A stretch of DNA of 29,809 nucleotides from an uncultured bacterium (GTDB lineage Bacteria > Chloroflexota > Chloroflexia > Thermomicrobiales > UBA6265), in contig CBFGRG010000001.1 in NCBI GenBank assembly GCA_965651105.1, positions 1-29,809 of the forward strand, read 5' to 3'. Made by a program: the position numbers and the translations under genes. This document shows, one piece after another, positions 1-13,887 of this stretch. The first letter of the stretch is position 1. Every line of letters starts with the position of its first letter. The notes beneath the pieces are model-generated. The model searched no databases and was not told where the DNA came from. It saw nothing but the letters and a program-made list of their open reading frames with translations.

Positions 1-294
1 CGATTGAACGCGCTCGATGCGCCGGTGCGGCAACCACTCGAACCGCAGGTACCAGACGAGCATCAAGCCCGTGGCGACGATCCAGAATCCATGGAGCGCC
101 CAGATCGGGCCCGGTGGCAGGCTGTAGACGTAGATCGCGTGGATCACGTTGCCGGCGTTCATGATGAGAATGTGACCAAGGCTGTAGGACGCCAGGTCTC
201 GCGTGCGGATCGCCTTGAGCAGCATCGGCAGCGCGCCGAACATGAACATGAAGGTGGAAACTGAGCCGGCAATGACCGGCAGGCTGGTGTTCAC
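1..294 (-). CDS. SemiSWEET/PQ-loop-like small membrane protein (about 3 TM helices), 3' end runs off the window
   Basis: Not in the ORF track because it has no stop in the window. Manual translation from GTG at 294 (AGGA 9 nt upstream): MNTSLPVIAGSVSTFMFMFGALPMLLKAIRTRDLASYSLGHILIMNAGNVIHAIYVYSLPPGPIWALHGFWIVATGLMLVWYLRFEWLPHRRIERVQS. Three hydrophobic segments; LPMLLKAIRTRD..SYS resembles the PQ-loop LPQxxKxxxTK pattern. Confidence 0.75.
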   Translation of the reverse strand, partial: MNTSLPVIAGSVSTFMFMFGALPMLLKAIRTRDLASYSLGHILIMNAGNVIHAIYVYSLPPGPIWALHGFWIVATGLMLVWYLRFEWLPHRRIERVQS

Positions 295-1203: not shown

Positions 1204-1248
1204 ATCCTACGGGCCAGCCATCAAGGGATCGTCAACAGCTACGTCAAC
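1204..1248 (-). promoter_or_regulatory. SARP-type activator site A: three direct repeats plus -10
   Basis: Minus strand reads TTGACG-TAGCTG-TTGACG-ATCCC-TTGATG-GCTGGCCCG-TAGGAT. Same hexamers and spacers as 5181-5225. Confidence 0.7.
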
Positions 1249-1256
1249 ACGGGCAG

Positions 1257-2360
1257 TCAGCTCGCAAGACGGTAGAACCTGAAGAAGTCGTGCTCGATCG
1301 GGAGCACCTCGACCCGCTGGAACCCGGCCTGCTCGGCGTAGTCCCGCAGCGTATCGGCGCGCATCACCGTACCCGTGGCCGCCGAGGGTGTGTCGACCAT
1401 CCCGACCGGAAGACAATGGAGGATGCTGAAGCCGTACATGTACCGCTCGACGTCATCGCCAGGCGCCGCGAATGTCTCCGCGACCTTCTCGTCCACGATC
1501 AGCACCGATCCACCGTCACGAACCAGCCGACGCATCGATCGGAGCACGCCGACCGGGTCGGACATGTCATGAATGCACTCCACCGCCATCGCGAAGTCGT
1601 ACCCGCCGGCCGGATCGGCCTGGCTGGCATCGATGGCATGGAAGGTCACCCGATCGTCCACGCCTTCGGCCCTGGCGTTGACGCGAGCGGCGTCGACGGA
1701 CGCTTCGTCGAGATCGAACCCGTCGACCCGAACCCCGGGAAAGGCGTTGGCAAGCGCAATGCTCGACCAGCCGAGACCGGTGCCGACGTCCGCAATCCGT
1801 GCCGGACGCTGGCTATCCTGCAGCCGCGCGTGGACATCCGGCATCGCGGGGATCCACTCCTGGGCGAGGAGATGCAGGAACTGCGGGTAGGTCGTCCCGG
1901 CCTGGCCTTCGGCGAGATCGGCGCCATAGTCTTCATAAGGAACGCCGCCCCCGGTCCGGTAGGCCTCCAGCAGCGCGGGCAGCGGCGCCACACAGCCGGC
2001 GAAGATCTGGGCGATGGGCGCCATCGCCAGCAGGCTTGTCGGGTCGGCGAGCACGGTCTCGTACCCGTCCGGGAGCTTGTAGCGGCGCGCTGACGGATCA
2101 CCGTCGGCCTCCTCCACGGCAAGTATTCCGGTCACCGCCTGCTGTTCGAGCCACTCGCGAGCGTAGCGCTCGGCCGTACCGGTGCGCTCGGCCAGCGTCT
2201 GGCTTGTCGCCGGGCCGTTCTGGGCGAGATCGCGGTAGTACCCCAGACGGTCTCCGAGATAGACCGAGAAGAGGTCCATCGCCGCGATCACCGAAGAGAA
2301 CAGTCGCTCCGCCAGCACGTCGGAAGACACAGGTGTGGTCGTGGTCGTCGTATTGTCCAT
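1257..2360 (-). CDS. class I SAM-dependent methyltransferase with N-terminal winged-helix dimerisation domain (Rv2258c-like architecture)
   Basis: YLGDRLG..ERYAREWL N-domain; motif I ADVGTGLG; DGFDLD; ECIHDM; RBS AAGGAG. Confidence 0.93.
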   Translation of the reverse strand: MDNTTTTTTPVSSDVLAERLFSSVIAAMDLFSVYLGDRLGYYRDLAQNGPATSQTLAERTGTAERYAREWLEQQAVTGILAVEEADGDPSARRYKLPDGYETVLADPTSLLAMAPIAQIFAGCVAPLPALLEAYRTGGGVPYEDYGADLAEGQAGTTYPQFLHLLAQEWIPAMPDVHARLQDSQRPARIADVGTGLGWSSIALANAFPGVRVDGFDLDEASVDAARVNARAEGVDDRVTFHAIDASQADPAGGYDFAMAVECIHDMSDPVGVLRSMRRLVRDGGSVLIVDEKVAETFAAPGDDVERYMYGFSILHCLPVGMVDTPSAATGTVMRADTLRDYAEQAGFQRVEVLPIEHDFFRFYRLAS

Positions 2361-2432
2361 GTCAACTCCTTATATTCGGTGTCAATCAACCAGTCACCGG
2401 GCACACCATCGTGCACCCGCTGAGGCACGAGA

Positions 2433-3533
2433 TCAGGCCGTAAGCCGATAGAAGCGCCAGACATCGTTCTCGATCGGCAGGACTTCAATCTCGCGGAACC
2501 CGGCCTCTTCGGCGTATCGCCGGAGAACATCCGGCCGCATGACCGTTCCGGTCGCTGCCGACGGCTCTTCGCTGAGTCCCACGGGGAGGCAATGCAGCAC
2601 GCTCGCCGCGTACATCAATCGTTCAATCGGGTCGCCCGGCGCGATGAATGTCTCCGCGACTCGCTCATCGCCGATCAGCACGGTACCGCCCGCCCCGACC
2701 ATGCGGCGCATCGCGGCGAGCGCGCCAACCGGATTCGCCATGTCATGGATCGTTTCGATCGCGAAGGCGAAATCGTATTCGGCACCAGGCGCCGGGTCCG
2801 CAGCATCACGGACGTGGAAGTGCACGCGGTCGCCTACTCCCGCGCGCTCGGCGTTGGCCCTGGCGGACTCGATCGACGCAGCGTCAAGGTCGAATCCATC
2901 GACCCGCACATGCGGGTAGCCCTGGGCGAGCGCAATCGTCGACCAGCCGGTGCCGCAGCCAATGTCGGCCACGCGCGCGGGCTGTGCGGAGTCCCGCAGG
3001 CGGGCATCGATGTCGGGAAGCGCCGGGATCCACTCCTGCGCGAGGAGGTTGATGTAGAGCACCCGATTCGCCTCGCCCATGCCTTCTCGCAGGTCGTCGC
3101 CGTACGCCTCGAACGGAATTCCGGCACCGGTTCGATAGGCATCCTCCAGCAACGGCAGCGTGGAGATCAAACCGAGAAACTGCCTCGCCAGCGGTGCCAC
3201 GTACGCCAGGTTGTCCCTGTCGGTGAGCGCGACATCGTGACCGGCAGGCAGGGAATAGCGACGGGACTCAGGTTCGCCAGTATCGGTGACGTCCAGGATG
3301 CCGGTGACAGCCTGCTGCTCGAGCCACTCGCGGGTGTAACGCTCCGCCGTGCCGGCGGCCTCGGCCAGCTCGGCGGGCGTTGCCTCGCCCAGGTTCTTGA
3401 GCGCGCGGTAGAAACCGAGGCGATCGCCGAGATAGATGGTGGTGAGGTCTGCGACGTCCAGCGCCGCTCCAAAGACCCGTTCCGCGAGCACCTGGCTGCG
3501 CTCCTCGGCCGATTGGGCTTGTATCGTGATCAT
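2433..3533 (-). CDS. class I SAM-dependent methyltransferase, paralog of 1257..2360
   Basis: YLGDRLG..ERYTREWLEQQAVTGIL; ADIGCGTG; DGFDLD; ETIHDM; C-terminal LHCLPVG..ATGTVMR shared with the neighbour. Confidence 0.93.
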   Translation of the reverse strand: MITIQAQSAEERSQVLAERVFGAALDVADLTTIYLGDRLGFYRALKNLGEATPAELAEAAGTAERYTREWLEQQAVTGILDVTDTGEPESRRYSLPAGHDVALTDRDNLAYVAPLARQFLGLISTLPLLEDAYRTGAGIPFEAYGDDLREGMGEANRVLYINLLAQEWIPALPDIDARLRDSAQPARVADIGCGTGWSTIALAQGYPHVRVDGFDLDAASIESARANAERAGVGDRVHFHVRDAADPAPGAEYDFAFAIETIHDMANPVGALAAMRRMVGAGGTVLIGDERVAETFIAPGDPIERLMYAASVLHCLPVGLSEEPSAATGTVMRPDVLRRYAEEAGFREIEVLPIENDVWRFYRLTA

Positions 3534-3553
3534 GGTGAAATCGTTCCCCTTTG

Positions 3554-5002
3554 CTACAGGGTGCGTTGACCTCCGGAATTCGTCGCTCGAGCGGCGACGG
3601 GTTGGATGTTCTGGTTAACGTGGAAGACATTGTCCGGATCGTATCGAGCCTTGATCGCCGCGAGGCGATCGAAGTTGCCACGGTAGGCTGCGCGCAGCCG
3701 TTGCGGGCCTTCCTCCATCATCATGTTGACGTAGGCGCCTCCGGCCGAGAACGGGTGGAGCGCCCGCCAGTAGTCGCGCGCCCACGCGGTGATTCGCTCG
3801 GCGTTGGCCGGATCGGGGTCAACCCCGACAATCACCTTCGCCCACGTCACGTCGCGATAGCTGAAGGCGGTTTCGTCGCGTCCAACCCGGCTCACGGCGC
3901 CATTGATCGGGTAGAGGTGCATGGTCGATTTCGGCGAAGGCAGGGCACTGCCAAACTCGACGTGACGGTCGATCGCCTCGTCCGGAAGGTCGCGCACGAA
4001 GTCGGCTTTCCAGTACCATTGCTCGCCTGGCGGGTATAACGGATCGAAGGCGCTCTGCAGCGCCGGGAATGGCACTTCCTCCGCGCCGTGCAGCGCCGGG
4101 GTGCCAACCCCGAGTGCCGGGGCGATCGCGTCTGCCGCGCGGTCTTCCGGGCCCAGGTAGCACCAGACGACCGCGCACATCGTCTGCCCATGCAGCTCTT
4201 CGGGGAAATCCGGTGCAGGTGGCACCGAGAGGAACGCGAAGAAGCCGCTGAGCTCGTCTGGCGCGTCGACGATGAAGTCGCGATACCAGCGCATGACCTC
4301 CGCCGATTGTTCGATCGGCCAGAGCGTCCGCCCAGCGGTCACCGTATGGACCGGGTGCAATCGGAACAGGAACGAGGTGACGACGCCGAAGTTGCCGCCG
4401 CCACCCCGCAGCGCCCAGAACAGGTCGGGATGCTCGCTCGCGCTCGCCGTGACGAAGCTGCCGTCGGCGAGCACCACGTCGGCGGCCAGCAGGCTGTCGA
4501 TCGTCAGGCCGTATTTGCGGCTCAGATGCCCCACCCCACCGCCCAGCGTGAGCCCGGCAACCCCGGTCGTGGAGATCATGCCGCTCGGGACCGCGAGCCC
4601 GAACGCGTGGGTAGCATGGTCAACCTCGGCCCATGTGCAGCCGGCATCGACTCGCGCGGTCCGGGCCTCCGGATCGACGCGGATCCCCTTCATCAGCGAC
4701 AGGTCGAGCACCACGCCGCCATCGACCGAGCCGAGCCCTGCGCCATTGTGTCCGCCACCGCGAATGGCGAGATCGAAGTGATGCGTTCGGGTCAGGTCGA
4801 CCGTGGCAATGACATCGGCCACGTCGACAGCTCGCACGATGAGCGCGGGGCGCTTGTCGATCATGGCGTTGTAGAGGGCGCGCGCCGGGTCGTATTCCGC
4901 GTCGCCGGGGCGAATCACGTCGCCCCGGATGGCGCCGCCGAACCTCGCCAGAGCGTCGGCGGCTGCCGTAGATTCGGTCCCTTCCGGGTGCAGCAGGGCC
5001 AT
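3554..5002 (-). CDS. FAD-binding oxidoreductase, VAO/PCMH family with C-terminal BBE domain
   Basis: Start moved to ATG 5002 (GGAAAGGAG RBS). RGGGHNGAG covalent-FAD His motif; GVAGLTLGGG; DLFWALRGGGGNFGVVT; RLAAIKARYDPDNVF. Confidence 0.93.
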   Translation of the reverse strand: MALLHPEGTESTAAADALARFGGAIRGDVIRPGDAEYDPARALYNAMIDKRPALIVRAVDVADVIATVDLTRTHHFDLAIRGGGHNGAGLGSVDGGVVLDLSLMKGIRVDPEARTARVDAGCTWAEVDHATHAFGLAVPSGMISTTGVAGLTLGGGVGHLSRKYGLTIDSLLAADVVLADGSFVTASASEHPDLFWALRGGGGNFGVVTSFLFRLHPVHTVTAGRTLWPIEQSAEVMRWYRDFIVDAPDELSGFFAFLSVPPAPDFPEELHGQTMCAVVWCYLGPEDRAADAIAPALGVGTPALHGAEEVPFPALQSAFDPLYPPGEQWYWKADFVRDLPDEAIDRHVEFGSALPSPKSTMHLYPINGAVSRVGRDETAFSYRDVTWAKVIVGVDPDPANAERITAWARDYWRALHPFSAGGAYVNMMMEEGPQRLRAAYRGNFDRLAAIKARYDPDNVFHVNQNIQPVAARATNSGGQRTL

Positions 5003-5180
5003 TGTGGCTCCTTTCCGGCCGGGGTGGCGGTGCTCCGTCCATAGACACTGCCATCCCCGACACCGGACAACTCCGGCAGGTGACCGCAAGGACGCCAGGC
5101 GGTCGTCACCGGAATCGAATTGGTCCTGACGGCCGGCCCTTGAGTTCCGGCTGCCGGACATCGTCTCGTCCTCACAACCG

Positions 5181-5225
5181 AGTATTGGCACCGAGCATCA
5201 ACGTAACGTCAACGCTTACGTCAAT
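5181..5225 (-). promoter_or_regulatory. SARP-type activator site B: three direct repeats plus -10
   Basis: Minus strand reads TTGACG-TAAGCG-TTGACG-TTACG-TTGATG-CTCGGTGCC-AATACT. Lies in the divergent intergenic region next to the SARP gene. Confidence 0.7.
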
Positions 5226-5248
5226 CCGAACAGGTCGAGGCGTACAAT
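5220..5248 (+). promoter_or_regulatory. candidate sigma70-type promoter of the SARP regulator
   Basis: TACAAT at 5243-5248. The position 17 nt upstream (5220-5225, GTCAAT) coincides with the outermost repeat of site B. Confidence 0.4.
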
Positions 5249-5293
5249 GGCGCAGGGCCTACATCGTTCGCCATCGCGACAGGATCCGGTACC

Positions 5294-8278
5294 GTGGCAC
5301 CATTGAAGCTTTCCCTGCTGGGGCCGCTGCATGTCGAGCGTGACGGCCAACCGATCTCTGGCCCGGTATATGCCAAGGTGCTGGCGCTGCTGGTCTTCCT
5401 TGCGGTCGAGTCGGACCGCCCGCACCAGCGTTCCGCGCTGGCTGCGCTGCTCTGGCCCGACCAGTCGGAGGATCGCGCTCGCCACAGCCTTCGCCAGGCA
5501 CTCAGCACGCTGCGCCGGGCGGTCGACGCCGGGGCGCAGCACCCATCGATAACCGTCACCCGCAACACGGTGACGTTCAATCGCGATGGCGGACACGACG
5601 TGGATGTGATCGAGCTGATGAGCCTGCTGGACGCCTCGGACCGGCACGATCACGACGACGCGGCGACCTGCGCGTCGTGCGCTGACCGGCGCGAGCGCGC
5701 CGTGGCGCTCTACCGGGGCGATCTGGTCGATGGGTTCACCATTCCCGACAGCGACGTGTTCGAGGACTGGGTGCAGGTCTGGCGCCAGCGCTTCCGCGAG
5801 CGGGTGGTGACTGCGCTCGACGACATCTCGACGTGGCATGAACGGATGGGCCGCCGCGACCTGGCGATCTCGGCGGTCCGGCGCCAGCTGGAGCTGGACC
5901 CCTGGCGTGAACCGGGGCATCGCCGCTTGATGGATCTGCTCTGGCAGGACGGCAACCGCGCCGGCGCGCTCGCCCAGTTCGAACGCTGTCGCGACCTCCT
6001 GGATGCCGAGGTCGGAGTCGAGCCCGAGCCGGAGACCATCGCGCTGTACGAGCGGATACGCGACGGAACACCTCACGCCGCCACCACCGGGACCGATTCC
6101 GTCGGCGCGGCGCGGCCGCTCCCCGCCCCGGCCACTCGCCTCGTCGGGCGCACACGCGAGCTGGAGGAAATCACCGACCTGCTCGAGCAACGCGGCTGCA
6201 GGCTGCTGACGCTGGCCGGACCCGGCGGCGTCGGCAAGACACGACTGGCGCTGCACATCGCGCACGAACGCGCCAGGCGTCGCGGCGAAATCGTCGGCGT
6301 GGTCCCGCTCACCCACGTTCACGACGCCGACGGCATCTGCGCGGCGATCGCCGACACCTTTGGGCTATCGGTGCAGCCGTCCCGGCCGATCCTGGCGCAA
6401 ATCGCGGGGTGGCTCCACGGGCGCGACGTCTTCCTGGTCATGGACAACGCCGAACACCTCACCGCCGAGATGGACGTGCTCTCGGACCTGCTGGCGGCCG
6501 AGCCGGGCCTGACCTTGCTCGTGACGACGCGGGAGCGCATTCGGCTCGCCGCGGAGTGGGTCTACGAAGTCCGCGGGATGAGCGTGCCGACAAATCCGGA
6601 TACCGACGCGTTCGAGGGTTACGACGCGGTCGAGCTGTTCATGGAGCGTGTTCGGCAGGTGCGCCCGGGAGCGCCGCTCCGGCACGATGAGCGACCAGAC
6701 GCGATCCGCATCTGCCAGCTCGTTTCGGGCTTCCCACTGGCCCTGGAGCTCGCGGCCGCATGGGCCGCGACCCTGCCGCTCGAGCGCATCGCGAGCGAAA
6801 TCCAGGAAAATCTCGATTTCCTCGCGGCAACCACGCGGGACCTCCCCGATCGCCACGCCAGCCTGCGCGCCGTGTTCTCGTCATCGTGGGAAATGCTCTC
6901 CCCCATCGAGCAGACAGCGTGGCGCCGCCTCTCGGTGTTCGACGATGGCTTCGATCTCGCCGCTGCCAGGGAAGTCACCGGTACGGATCTCGCCACGCTC
7001 GCGAACCTGATCAACAAATCGCTGCTGTCGCGCCTCGACCTCGACCGGTATCTCCTCCACCAGTTGCTGCGACAGTACGGGGACGAACTGCTCCAGCAGA
7101 ACCCGGAGGAGTATCGCGACACCCGGGACCTGCACGCGCGGCACTTTCTCGGCAGGCTCGCGGGGATGGAGGAGGCGCTCACAGGTCGCGACCAGCCGCA
7201 GGCGCTGGAGACGATAGAGGATATGCTCGGCAACCTCCGATCGGCGTGGTCATGGGCGGCGAAAGGCGAGGCGATCGACGAGATGGTCGCGGCGGCGCAC
7301 GCATTCTGGCTCTATCACGCGATCCGCGGCCGGATGGGAGAGGGTGCGGCAACCTTTGGAGAGATGCTCGAAGCGCTCGAACGCCGAGCCTGCGAAGGCG
7401 ATACAGAGAGCTGCGGGCGGACACTGGCCCTTGCCCGGGTGTACACCGGCGGGTTCCGCAGCGGGCTCGGGCGCTACGATGAGGGCATCGAGCTCCTGCG
7501 AGACGGCATCGCGACCCTCCGCGAATGCGGAACCGGCCGGGATCTGGGGCTGGCCCTCAACATGCTCGCCGCCGCGCTGACGATGAAGGGCCGCGATACC
7601 GAGGTCCGTGATTGCCTGCAGGAGAGCCTCGAAGCCTCCGAGCGCGCGGGCGACCGATGGACGACGGCGTTCGCGCTGAACGATCTCGGCATGTTGCTGC
7701 ACAAGCATTTCGGGGATGACGACGCCTCGCGGCACTGCGAACGCAGTCGCACCATCTTCCGGCAGATCGGCGATGCGCGCGGCCAGGCCTTCGCCGCCCA
7801 CAACCTCGGCATCATCGCTTTCGAGCAAGGCCGGTATCGCCGCGCGATGGCGCTTCACCACGAGGCGAAGTCGCTCCGATCGGAGATCAACGACACATGG
7901 GGCGTCGCGACATCGCTGGTGCAAATCGGCGTCGTCTCCCGTGCCACGGGCGCAACCGACGCAGCTCGCCGCGAGCTCACGCGCGCCCTCCGTGTCGCCT
8001 GGGAGAGCTCGATCGTGCCGGTCGTGCTGGAAGCGCTCGTCGAGCTCGCCGGGCTGGATATCGACATGGGCACGGCCGACGACACCGAAGGGACGCTCGC
8101 CGCTCTTGCCGCGCATCCGGTGTTGCCGAGACACATGCGGCCGCGACTGGAGCACCTGATGGCGCTCGCCGGCGTCGAGCCCGCATGGCCGGAGCCCGAT
8201 GCCGAAGACAACCGATGGGCAACTCAGGCGGTGGACCGGCTCGCGCGCCGAGCGCTGGCCGGTGGCGTCACCACCTGA
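5294..8278 (+). CDS. AfsR/SARP-family transcriptional regulator: OmpR-type wHTH + BTAD + NB-ARC/STAND ATPase + TPR repeats
   Basis: LSLLGPLHV..ALLVFLA..LLWPD..SLRQALSTLRR; LELDPWRE..LMDLL..G.RAGALAQFE (BTAD); Walker A GPGGVGKT; Walker B LVMDNAEHL; GFPLALELAA; Ala/Leu-rich TPR C-terminus. Confidence 0.93.
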   Translation: MAPLKLSLLGPLHVERDGQPISGPVYAKVLALLVFLAVESDRPHQRSALAALLWPDQSEDRARHSLRQALSTLRRAVDAGAQHPSITVTRNTVTFNRDGGHDVDVIELMSLLDASDRHDHDDAATCASCADRRERAVALYRGDLVDGFTIPDSDVFEDWVQVWRQRFRERVVTALDDISTWHERMGRRDLAISAVRRQLELDPWREPGHRRLMDLLWQDGNRAGALAQFERCRDLLDAEVGVEPEPETIALYERIRDGTPHAATTGTDSVGAARPLPAPATRLVGRTRELEEITDLLEQRGCRLLTLAGPGGVGKTRLALHIAHERARRRGEIVGVVPLTHVHDADGICAAIADTFGLSVQPSRPILAQIAGWLHGRDVFLVMDNAEHLTAEMDVLSDLLAAEPGLTLLVTTRERIRLAAEWVYEVRGMSVPTNPDTDAFEGYDAVELFMERVRQVRPGAPLRHDERPDAIRICQLVSGFPLALELAAAWAATLPLERIASEIQENLDFLAATTRDLPDRHASLRAVFSSSWEMLSPIEQTAWRRLSVFDDGFDLAAAREVTGTDLATLANLINKSLLSRLDLDRYLLHQLLRQYGDELLQQNPEEYRDTRDLHARHFLGRLAGMEEALTGRDQPQALETIEDMLGNLRSAWSWAAKGEAIDEMVAAAHAFWLYHAIRGRMGEGAATFGEMLEALERRACEGDTESCGRTLALARVYTGGFRSGLGRYDEGIELLRDGIATLRECGTGRDLGLALNMLAAALTMKGRDTEVRDCLQESLEASERAGDRWTTAFALNDLGMLLHKHFGDDDASRHCERSRTIFRQIGDARGQAFAAHNLGIIAFEQGRYRRAMALHHEAKSLRSEINDTWGVATSLVQIGVVSRATGATDAARRELTRALRVAWESSIVPVVLEALVELAGLDIDMGTADDTEGTLAALAAHPVLPRHMRPRLEHLMALAGVEPAWPEPDAEDNRWATQAVDRLARRALAGGVTT

Positions 8279-12408: not shown

Positions 12409-12492
12409 GCCGAATTGGTGGAATTGGCAGACACGCCAGCCTTAGGAGCTGGTGCCCGCGAGGGTGTGTGGGTTCGAGTCCCGCGTTCGGCA
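12409..12492 (+). tRNA. tRNA-Leu (anticodon TAG), CCA not fully encoded
   Basis: Acceptor stem GCCGAAT/GTTCGGC; D-loop TGGTGGAATTGGCAGAC; anticodon arm CCAGC-CT-TAG-GA-GCTGG; long variable arm; T-arm GTGGG-TTCGAGT-CCCGC; discriminator A. Confidence 0.97.
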
Positions 12493-12548
12493 CCGAGCAA
12501 TCAATTGGTTCAACGAATGGTTTTCCCGCGAGGACCGGGTTGCGCTGG

Positions 12549-13017: not shown

Positions 13018-13887
13018 TCAGGCTCCAGTGCCCCAGCCGAGCCGCCGCCACGCTGATGCGGGCAGGATCTGGTCGACTCGCTCCAGCACCCAGTCGGGCC
13101 GGTCGGTCGGGGCGATCCCGGCCAGCATCGCCGGCGTCGTCTCGCCCGTCAGCACAAGCGCCGAAGGCATTCCCGCGTCGAGCGCCATGCGGATATCGGT
13201 CATCAGCCGGTCGCCGATCATCACACAGCGCTCCGCCGGCAGCTCCAGCCGCGCCAGCGCCGCCGCGAGCATGTACGGGTCGGGCTTGCCCGTATGCCGC
13301 CGCAGCGTCGTGCCGGTGCATCCCTCGACCGCGCCGATGATCGCCGCCGCGTCCGGCTCGCCCCGGCCACCGGGAAACGGGCAGAACCGGTCGGGATTGG
13401 TCGCCACCAGAAAGGCGCGACCCTCGGTGCGGATCGCGTCAAAGGCGATCTGCAGCTTCCGGTAGTCGAACCCCCGGTCGTAACTGGCGATCACGATGTC
13501 GATCTCGCGCGGATCTTCCGACATCCGGATCCCGGCAGCGGAGAGCGCATCCTTCAACGGCTGCTCGCTGATCGGGAACACCGTCGCCTCGGGGTGGTGC
13601 GCCAGCAGCCAGGCGGTCATCGTGTCGACCGTGTTCAGCACCTGCTCGGGCGTGGCAGCGATCCCGAACCGCGCCAGCTTGTGCACATACTCGGCGGGCG
13701 AGCTGGTCGGATTGTTGGAGAGGAACAGCACCTTCCGGTCGAGGGCGGCCAGCGCCTCGATCAGCCGCCTCGCGCCAGGCAGCGGGTCATCGCCGAGATA
13801 GATCGTGCCGTCGAGGTCAAAAACATACCCGTCCAGCAACTTGTCCGGACGGGCTGCTCCCGCGATGGATGTCGATTCCGACTGCAT
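13018..13887 (-). CDS. HAD-IIA family phosphatase (NagD/AraL-like)
   Basis: Motif I DLDGTIY; motif II SNN; TNPD; GKP; motif IV GDRLMTDI; LVLTG. Confidence 0.92.
   Translation of the reverse strand: MQSESTSIAGAARPDKLLDGYVFDLDGTIYLGDDPLPGARRLIEALAALDRKVLFLSNNPTSSPAEYVHKLARFGIAATPEQVLNTVDTMTAWLLAHHPEATVFPISEQPLKDALSAAGIRMSEDPREIDIVIASYDRGFDYRKLQIAFDAIRTEGRAFLVATNPDRFCPFPGGRGEPDAAAIIGAVEGCTGTTLRRHTGKPDPYMLAAALARLELPAERCVMIGDRLMTDIRMALDAGMPSALVLTGETTPAMLAGIAPTDRPDWVLERVDQILPASAWRRLGWGTGA

Follow-up and report, generated by a model that had tools for sequence, protein, structure and literature searches.

Candidate SARP-type triple-repeat promoters beside an AfsR-like regulator gene in an uncultured Chloroflexota bacterium

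The DNA analysed here, a stretch of 29,809 nucleotides (hereafter the window; contig CBFGRG010000001.1), belongs to a metagenome-assembled genome (MAG) of the order Thermomicrobiales, phylum Chloroflexota (G000; 3.41 Mb, 538 contigs, 83% complete), and is contained in read runs from compost, manure, and soil metagenomes. It encodes a large SARP-type regulator (SARP, Streptomyces antibiotic regulatory protein; 5294–8278, plus strand) and, on the minus strand, two sites at which three phased hexamers precede a −10-like element (site A, 1204–1247; site B, 5181–5224). The two sites are probably activator-dependent promoters of the SARP type, bound by the adjacent AfsR-like protein; binding, activation, the transcription start positions, and the transcribed units at both sites are what we infer from their geometry, from the architecture of the regulator, and from similar repeats beside related regulator genes. 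A preliminary description of this DNA had likewise regarded the sites as SARP boxes of the adjacent regulator and was right in kind, although not in the scope and host that it assigned: its placement of the system "outside streptomycetes" holds but understates the case, the host being a member of the Chloroflexota.

Two triple-repeat sites and an AfsR-type regulator

Read on the minus strand, site A comprises TTGACG (1247–1242), N6, TTGACG (1235–1230), N5, TTGATG (1224–1219), N9, and TAGGAT (1209–1204), and site B comprises TTGACG (5224–5219), N6, TTGACG (5212–5207), N5, TTGATG (5201–5196), N9, and AATACT (5186–5181); their weight-matrix scores are 40.0 and 37.7, respectively. All 18 hexamer bases and the periods of 12 and 11 are shared, as are a "TA" after the first hexamer and a "G" before the second, confirming the two near-identical sites described previously; only the starts given for them (1248 and 5225) were off, trivially, by one base past the first T. 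Recent duplication can be ruled out as the source of the likeness because the spacers and flanks otherwise diverge (74% over 38 nt), agreement being limited to the hexamers and three more bases. With up to three mismatches allowed, the pattern TTGACG-N6-TTGACG-N5-TTGATG-N9-(−10) has two matches in the window versus 0.01 expected, and the genome-wide scan that had been proposed, run over the 538 contigs of G000, returned exactly two full matches, sites A and B.

In known SARP targets, direct repeats are spaced by 11 or 22 bp, and 8 bp separate the 3′ repeat from the −10 element (PMC10936776). At sites A and B the proximal heptamer TTGATG(G/C) is followed by 8 nt and then by TAGGAT or AATACT (the −10 elements being assigned by sequence alone), and the repeats at orthologous sites are spaced 11/11 or 12/11, so that the SARP geometry claimed earlier does match the published afs-type layout in its 11-bp phase and its 8 bp to the −10. 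In the afs box of Streptomyces coelicolor (−40 to −19), the upstream repeat overlaps the −35 element (−38 to −33), the −10 element lies at −12 to −7, and region 4 of the sigma factor docks on the dimer of the SARP AfsR and not in the −35 groove, an arrangement termed "sigma adaptation"; the extended afsS spacer is viewed as one cause of low basal activity (PMC10936776). As in the afs box, 20 bp separate a −35-like hexamer, here the middle one, from the −10 of sites A and B. They differ from it in having three repeats, as opposed to two, with the distal one at 12 bp, and in their repeat word, which is TTGAYG and not the afs word. Triple heptamer sites are known for the SARPs DnrI, ActII-ORF4, VlmI, and FdmR1 and, as at sites A and B, their three repeats lie over the −35 region in divergent or cluster-internal promoters beside the regulator gene (PMC10972967).

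These features suggest a mechanism in which protomers of the regulator would bind the TTGAYG repeats head to tail. With +1 assumed to be 7 nt below the −10 (predicted near 1197 for site A and near 5174 for site B), the repeats would lie at about −27/−22, −38/−33, and −50/−45, placing the two promoter-proximal protomers in the register of AfsR on the afs box, with sigma region 4 docked on the SARP dimer. Such docking would account for the presence of a good −35-like hexamer at an otherwise useless 20 bp from the −10: the three hexamers are 9, 20, and 32 bp away from it, none of which is a workable −35 distance. The NOD-TPR part of the regulator (domains given below) would presumably gate activity via ATP and a signal.

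The 5294–8278 gene encodes a protein of 994 residues in which Pfam and phmmer searches identified an OmpR-type winged helix-turn-helix (wHTH), a BTAD domain directly after it (PF03704, residues 125–256; 80.8 bits, cut-off 22.1), an NB-ARC or nucleotide-binding oligomerization domain (NOD; residues 289–532, 31.7 bits), and then TPR repeats (TPR_12, residues 791–858, 60.9 bits). Residues 4–260 align by phmmer to EmbR (2fez, E 4e-10) and AfsR (8hvr, E 7e-9). Since the first 260 residues align in this way and AfsR, a protein of 993 residues, has the same SARP-NOD-arm-TPR order, its SARP part being residues 1–270 (8hvr, 8k60, 8jke), we assign the window protein to the AfsR-type large SARPs, which bears out the STAND-SARP identity proposed for it previously. 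Its Walker A motif, GPGGxGKTR, is invariant among orthologs.

The window SARP, whose recognition helix reads ARHSLRQALSTLRR (residues 62–75), retains the backbone contacts of AfsR: W54, R67, S71, R74, and R75 correspond, with an offset of +20, to W74, R87, S91, R94, and K95 of AfsR. In contrast, the base-contacting residues differ, with Q68 and T72 in place of T88 and R92, a change in the base-reading residues that is expected because the repeat word differs from the afs word. The window protein also differs from AfsR in its Chloroflexota host, in its low identity (E ~1e-8 over the SARP domain), and in an insert, H-x-H-x(5-6)-C-x-x-C, at the wHTH/BTAD junction (residues 118–129, window positions 5645–5680). 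The four closest orthologs all have this motif without variation, and it is found in one subclade of the Chloroflexota SARP-STAND proteins; it is absent from AfsR, from EmbR, and from the paralogous second SARP of G000, encoded on contig C275 (referred to below as the C275 type, the window SARP being of the C1 type). It may be a zinc or redox site.

Repeats beside related regulator genes and across the genome

Searches of 185,579 species genomes yielded 80 named loci with SARP homologs; the named relatives recovered through the SARP alignment are Chloroflexota MAGs. The 917 kb of DNA at these loci was scanned with a weight matrix built on 19 sites, in all of which the N9 after the proximal hexamer is constant. 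The closest homologs of the window SARP are only 41–44% identical and patchily distributed, occurring in two genomes of the same family (G006 and G019) and one of another family (G058); a SARP fragment in G021 has 51% identity over the DNA-binding domain. The preliminary description had named absence of the motif upstream of orthologs as an outcome that would speak against it, and the opposite was found: a TTGAC- or TTCAC-type box lies beside the SARP gene in all nine close relatives with readable upstream DNA (G006, G019, G021, G058, L053, L055, L058, L066, and L089), which span several Chloroflexota orders. These boxes have 11-bp period repeats, N9, and TAnnnT, and they lie on the strand opposite to the SARP gene, 25–360 nt upstream of its start. 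At a score of ≥14, the matrix gave eight matches in the 917 kb, five of them at this divergent position: L053 (Chloroflexales), L058 (Anaerolineales), L066 and L055 (Chloroflexia), and L089 (Herpetosiphonaceae, TTCACG).

Between orthologous sites only the hexamers are kept, while the spacers drift. In G006, TTGACG-N6-TTGACG-N5-ATGATC-N9-TAGCCT, divergent from the SARP gene, directly precedes the ortholog of the PQ-loop gene at the left end of the window, and a second box, TTGACG-N5-TTGATG-N9-TAGAGT, precedes EncM-like and methyltransferase genes corresponding to those behind site B. G006 has its genes in a different order from the window, but a box is retained by its PQ-loop unit and another by its EncM-methyltransferase unit, and the box thus appears to travel with its gene units. 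The boxes of the other relatives read TTGACG-N5-TTGACG-N9-TAGACT (G019), TTGAGC-N5-TTGATG-N5-TTGATA-N9-TAGGGT (G058), and TTGACG-N5-CTGACG-N5-TTGACG-N9-TAGGAT (G021), the last facing a methyltransferase gene. At L058, from an Anaerolineales MAG, the gene facing the box (3090–5225) encodes a Ser/Thr protein kinase with a PD40 β-propeller, recalling the AfsK-AfsR pairing in Streptomyces; at L053 the facing gene encodes a small SARP-like protein.

More distant SARP-STAND genes have other repeats in the same place, implying that the repeat sequence follows the regulator. We searched the 300 nt upstream of 33 SARP-STAND genes for any hexamer repeated at 11 bp and followed, after 8–10 nt, by nAnnnT. 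In the divergent orientation this rule was matched exactly at 13 of the 33 loci, compared with 0.3 for shuffled sequences and 0.6 for random segments, and at 20 of 33 when one mismatch was allowed (3.7 shuffled, 1.8 random). The words vary among the regulators and include CTGATA, TTTTGC, TGTCAC, (C/T)ATACG, GATTCA, ATAATG, ACCTGT, and AACGTT. The SARPs with TTGAC boxes fall mostly in one clade of the SARP tree and all share the recognition-helix motif H(S/N)LxQAL, mostly with an arginine before it. The helix of the L126 regulator resembles that of the window SARP with the change H64D, and its repeats are TTTTGC; that of L089 has T64, and its repeats are TTCACG. Of the computational arguments that the repeats are read by the SARP and not by another factor, the strongest is this fixed geometry combined with a word that tracks the neighboring regulator.

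The repeats also extend beyond the window. The weight matrix identified seven boxes in G000, comprising sites A and B and five on contigs C75, C205, C273, and C446, all intergenic and pointing at a downstream gene or at a contig end. A triple box, TTGACG-N6-CTGACG-N5-TTGACG-N9-TAATCT, precedes an open reading frame (ORF) of ~93 residues (C446:39–70), and further boxes precede a P450-GrpB gene pair (C446:431–462), an aminotransferase gene (C75:1188–1219), and a second EncM-like gene divergent from an aldo-keto reductase gene (C205:1992–2023). The fifth, divergent from an amidohydrolase gene, points off its contig (C273:86–117), and its equivalent precedes a cupin gene in G003 and G007. Among 61 relatives (including the unpublished genomes G015 and G048, neither of which has a box), a strict pattern of two repeats plus −10 gave 24 matches in nine genomes, all in the same taxonomic family, versus three for a reversed control. 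The preliminary description had taken sites A and B to define the target regulon; they do not, because five more boxes of the same geometry sit on other contigs of G000, and boxes occur in G003 as well. The same SARP probably serves these five boxes, and with them the second EncM-like oxygenase, the P450-GrpB pair, the ~93-residue ORF, the aminotransferase, and, for the fifth, probably a cupin gene.

Boxes without a C1-type regulator and alternative readers

Several observations weigh against the window SARP as the reader of the boxes, the most serious coming from G003 (uncultured Chloroflexia bacterium MFD01721.bin.1.124; 94% complete, 2 contigs), which is congeneric with G000. G003 has four strict boxes (L019 7161–7192 and 9743–9774, L020 5018–5049, and L021 5202–5233), including a perfect TTGACG-N6-TTGACG-N5-TTGATG-N9-TAAGGT before a cupin gene, and its boxes lie at loci orthologous to those of the C273, C205, and C446 boxes of G000. 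However, its only BTAD gene is an ortholog of the C275 type (63% identity), which is ~30% identical to the window SARP, and a search of G003 with the DNA-binding domain of the window SARP returned only this C275 type, at E 0.008. Another protein may therefore read the box, at least in G003. In addition, the Pfam Trans_reg_C match of the window SARP (22.4 bits) is below the cut-off of 26.2, and in four compost metatranscriptome runs, one of them DNA-like, the locus appears only as thin Logan contigs that cross both sites and in which no starts can be called.

Boxes in a genome without a C1-type SARP leave a residual doubt, and the alternative that they best support is that another winged-helix protein of the genus, either an OmpR/PhoB-type response regulator or the C275-type SARP, reads the boxes, with the adjacent SARP not the binder or not the sole one. 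We consider this unlikely, although it is the most credible of the alternatives. In its favor, the four G003 boxes are well formed and retained at orthologous loci, and G003 encodes eight OmpR-type regulators in addition to its C275-type SARP. Geometry alone cannot tell SARP sites from PhoB-type sites: the boxes of PhoB and PhoP, too, consist of direct repeats phased at 11 bp, which take the place of the −35 element and are recognized by a winged helix with the same fold. On the other hand, no receiver-domain regulator is linked to any of the boxes examined, nor does any regulator gene adjoin the four in G003, and the target genes are not a phosphate-related set. Unlike PhoB and PhoP boxes, those described here are tied specifically to SARP genes across genomes; since C1-type SARP genes from several orders have the box in their divergent promoter, and other SARP-STAND genes have their own repeats there, a genus-level response regulator would be insufficient to explain them. 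The C275 paralog is weakened as a candidate by the lack of a TTGACG box near its gene in G000, G002, G003, and G007, by a recognition helix that differs from that of the window SARP (N64, Y67, K68, and L72, all unlike) in a protein far off in the tree, and by G002, which encodes a C275 ortholog at 80% identity and has no strict box. Among the 61 relatives, true cupin orthologs occur in G003 and G007 only; each of the two has a box, but two cases are not enough to tell one candidate regulator from another.

The G003 MAG may also simply lack a variable segment. Synteny between the window and contig C2 of G003 starts only at ~13,030–13,034, just past a tRNA-Leu gene (12409–12494), which implies that window positions 1–12.9 kb, including the whole SARP cluster, are variable and missing from this place in G003; with the tRNA-Leu (anticodon tag) at its edge, this segment has the appearance of a variable island. 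G003, or the strain assembled, may thus have lost the SARP island but kept the boxes. Behind one of these boxes, the EncM-like gene (L019 5518–6953) is split into two frames, with a gap of 1 nt between the high-scoring segment pairs; it is either a pseudogene or the product of a long-read indel error.

It is far less plausible that the SARP, when bound to the boxes, chiefly represses or autoregulates the divergent promoter of its own gene and does not mainly activate the minus-strand units. A candidate but weak −10 element for the SARP gene, TACAAT (5243–5248, plus strand), lies 18 nt from the distal repeat of site B, which is upstream of it, and this counts in favor of such a role. However, the distance to the plus-strand −10-like element varies among orthologs (18, 20, and 28 nt), whereas the N9 to the minus-strand −10 is fixed in every one, and autoregulation through an overlap of the distal repeat with the SARP promoter was rejected on these grounds. 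Site A and the five dispersed boxes, moreover, have no divergent SARP gene, and characterized SARPs are activators (PMC10972967). Finally, it is very improbable that the repeats are ordinary promoter sequence for the housekeeping sigma factor (tandem −35-like hexamers or an UP-like element) whose likeness at A and B reflects chance or descent, since, although TTGACG is one position off the consensus −35 TTGACA and a plausible −10 is present at both sites, the hexamers are all at unworkable distances from it, the full and strict patterns exceed expectation as given above (the latter in few genomes), the hexamers alone are kept between orthologous sites, and the words of other SARP-STAND genes are unlike a −35.

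Gene units behind the boxes and the proposed regulon

If the SARP acts as proposed, site B would drive an EncM-like oxygenase gene and two methyltransferase genes, all on the minus strand. The first gene behind site B (3554–5161) encodes an FAD-dependent oxygenase of the BBE/FAD_binding_4 type with E 3e-111 to EncM (6fye); its ATG (5161) is preceded by GAGGA (5173–5169). It is followed by MT2 (2433–3533), an S-adenosylmethionine (SAM) methyltransferase that by Pfam carries an Rv2258c-like wHTH, and by MT1 (1257–2360), a paralogous SAM methyltransferase whose nearest solved relatives are TnmJ and Rv2258c. In G002 (C500; L133, ~1150–1320), the methyltransferase ortholog (62% identity) lacks a TTGACG box and is preceded by a gene whose end encodes a LuxR-type HTH, which suggests that the enzyme is under a different regulator there.

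Site A begins 10 nt past the stop codon of MT1 (1259–1257), with no terminator between them, and would drive or boost the expression of three small proteins and a PQ-loop carrier. The three small ORFs, Arg-rich and in tandem on the minus strand, encode 70 (855–1067), 58 (641–817), and 94 residues (340–624); the PQ-loop or SemiSWEET-like membrane protein gene (1–294, minus strand) runs off the contig end. Pfam searches with the three small ORFs identified no family, even at E 1, and Rfam searches, which covered the long leader that follows site A and the other contigs with boxes, gave no match there, the only hit being the tRNA at 12409–12494. In G005, another genome congeneric with G000, counterparts of all three small ORFs also lie behind a box: the 70- and 58-residue ORFs are kept there, and the 94-residue product is 42–50% identical to that of a G005 ORF ~930 nt behind a box. 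Because of this recurrence we take the three small ORFs to be real genes. A C-terminal motif, (L/I)xR(L/A)G(R/H)W(I/L)(E/Q)G, is present in the 94-residue ORF and in the G005 (L023) counterparts of the last two ORFs. The main target of AfsR encodes the small protein AfsS, and the three small ORFs that site A faces recall AfsS by position, a parallel between the two systems. On the other side of site B, a metatranscriptome contig of run X16 starts at 5264, and the depth of runs X15 and X16 is near zero over ~4800–5263.

Pathway-specific SARPs such as ActII-ORF4, DnrI, FdmR1, and VlmI also have targets that include tailoring-type enzymes (oxygenases and methyltransferases). They read TCGAGxx-type words. 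These are small SARPs encoded in recognizable actinomycete biosynthetic clusters, whereas core biosynthetic genes were not observed here, and five or more of the boxes in G000 are scattered over other contigs. A wider proposal, which we hold only tentatively and think on balance doubtful, is that the SARP-STAND protein is a master regulator with at least seven dispersed promoters under its control. These would serve genes for enzymes of oxidation and tailoring (two EncM-like oxygenases, the methyltransferases, a P450, an aminotransferase, and a cupin), for a carrier, and for three small proteins resembling AfsS. The regulator would then represent a Chloroflexota-wide class with operators readable from sequence, in which specificity would be switched by the residue at helix position 64 (His for TTGAC, Asp for TTTTGC, Thr for TTCAC) and the HxH...CxxC insert would provide a metal or redox input.

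The mechanism itself is already known, and the interest lies first in the phylum, in which this design has not been studied. A 2024 review describes SARPs as exclusive to actinobacteria (PMC10972967), and among the top full-text matches of a literature search no paper joined SARPs with Chloroflexi or Chloroflexota. The AfsR design, in both protein architecture and promoter register, including the −35-like hexamer at 20 bp, thus occurs in a phylum that is largely uncultured and whose regulation is almost unknown. Because the boxes are long, phased, and located beside regulator genes, such regulons may be predictable from MAGs alone, and for G000 they offer a concrete, testable set of seven promoters. 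From the natural pairs of regulator and box, a SARP recognition code might be worked out and orthogonal activator/promoter parts developed.

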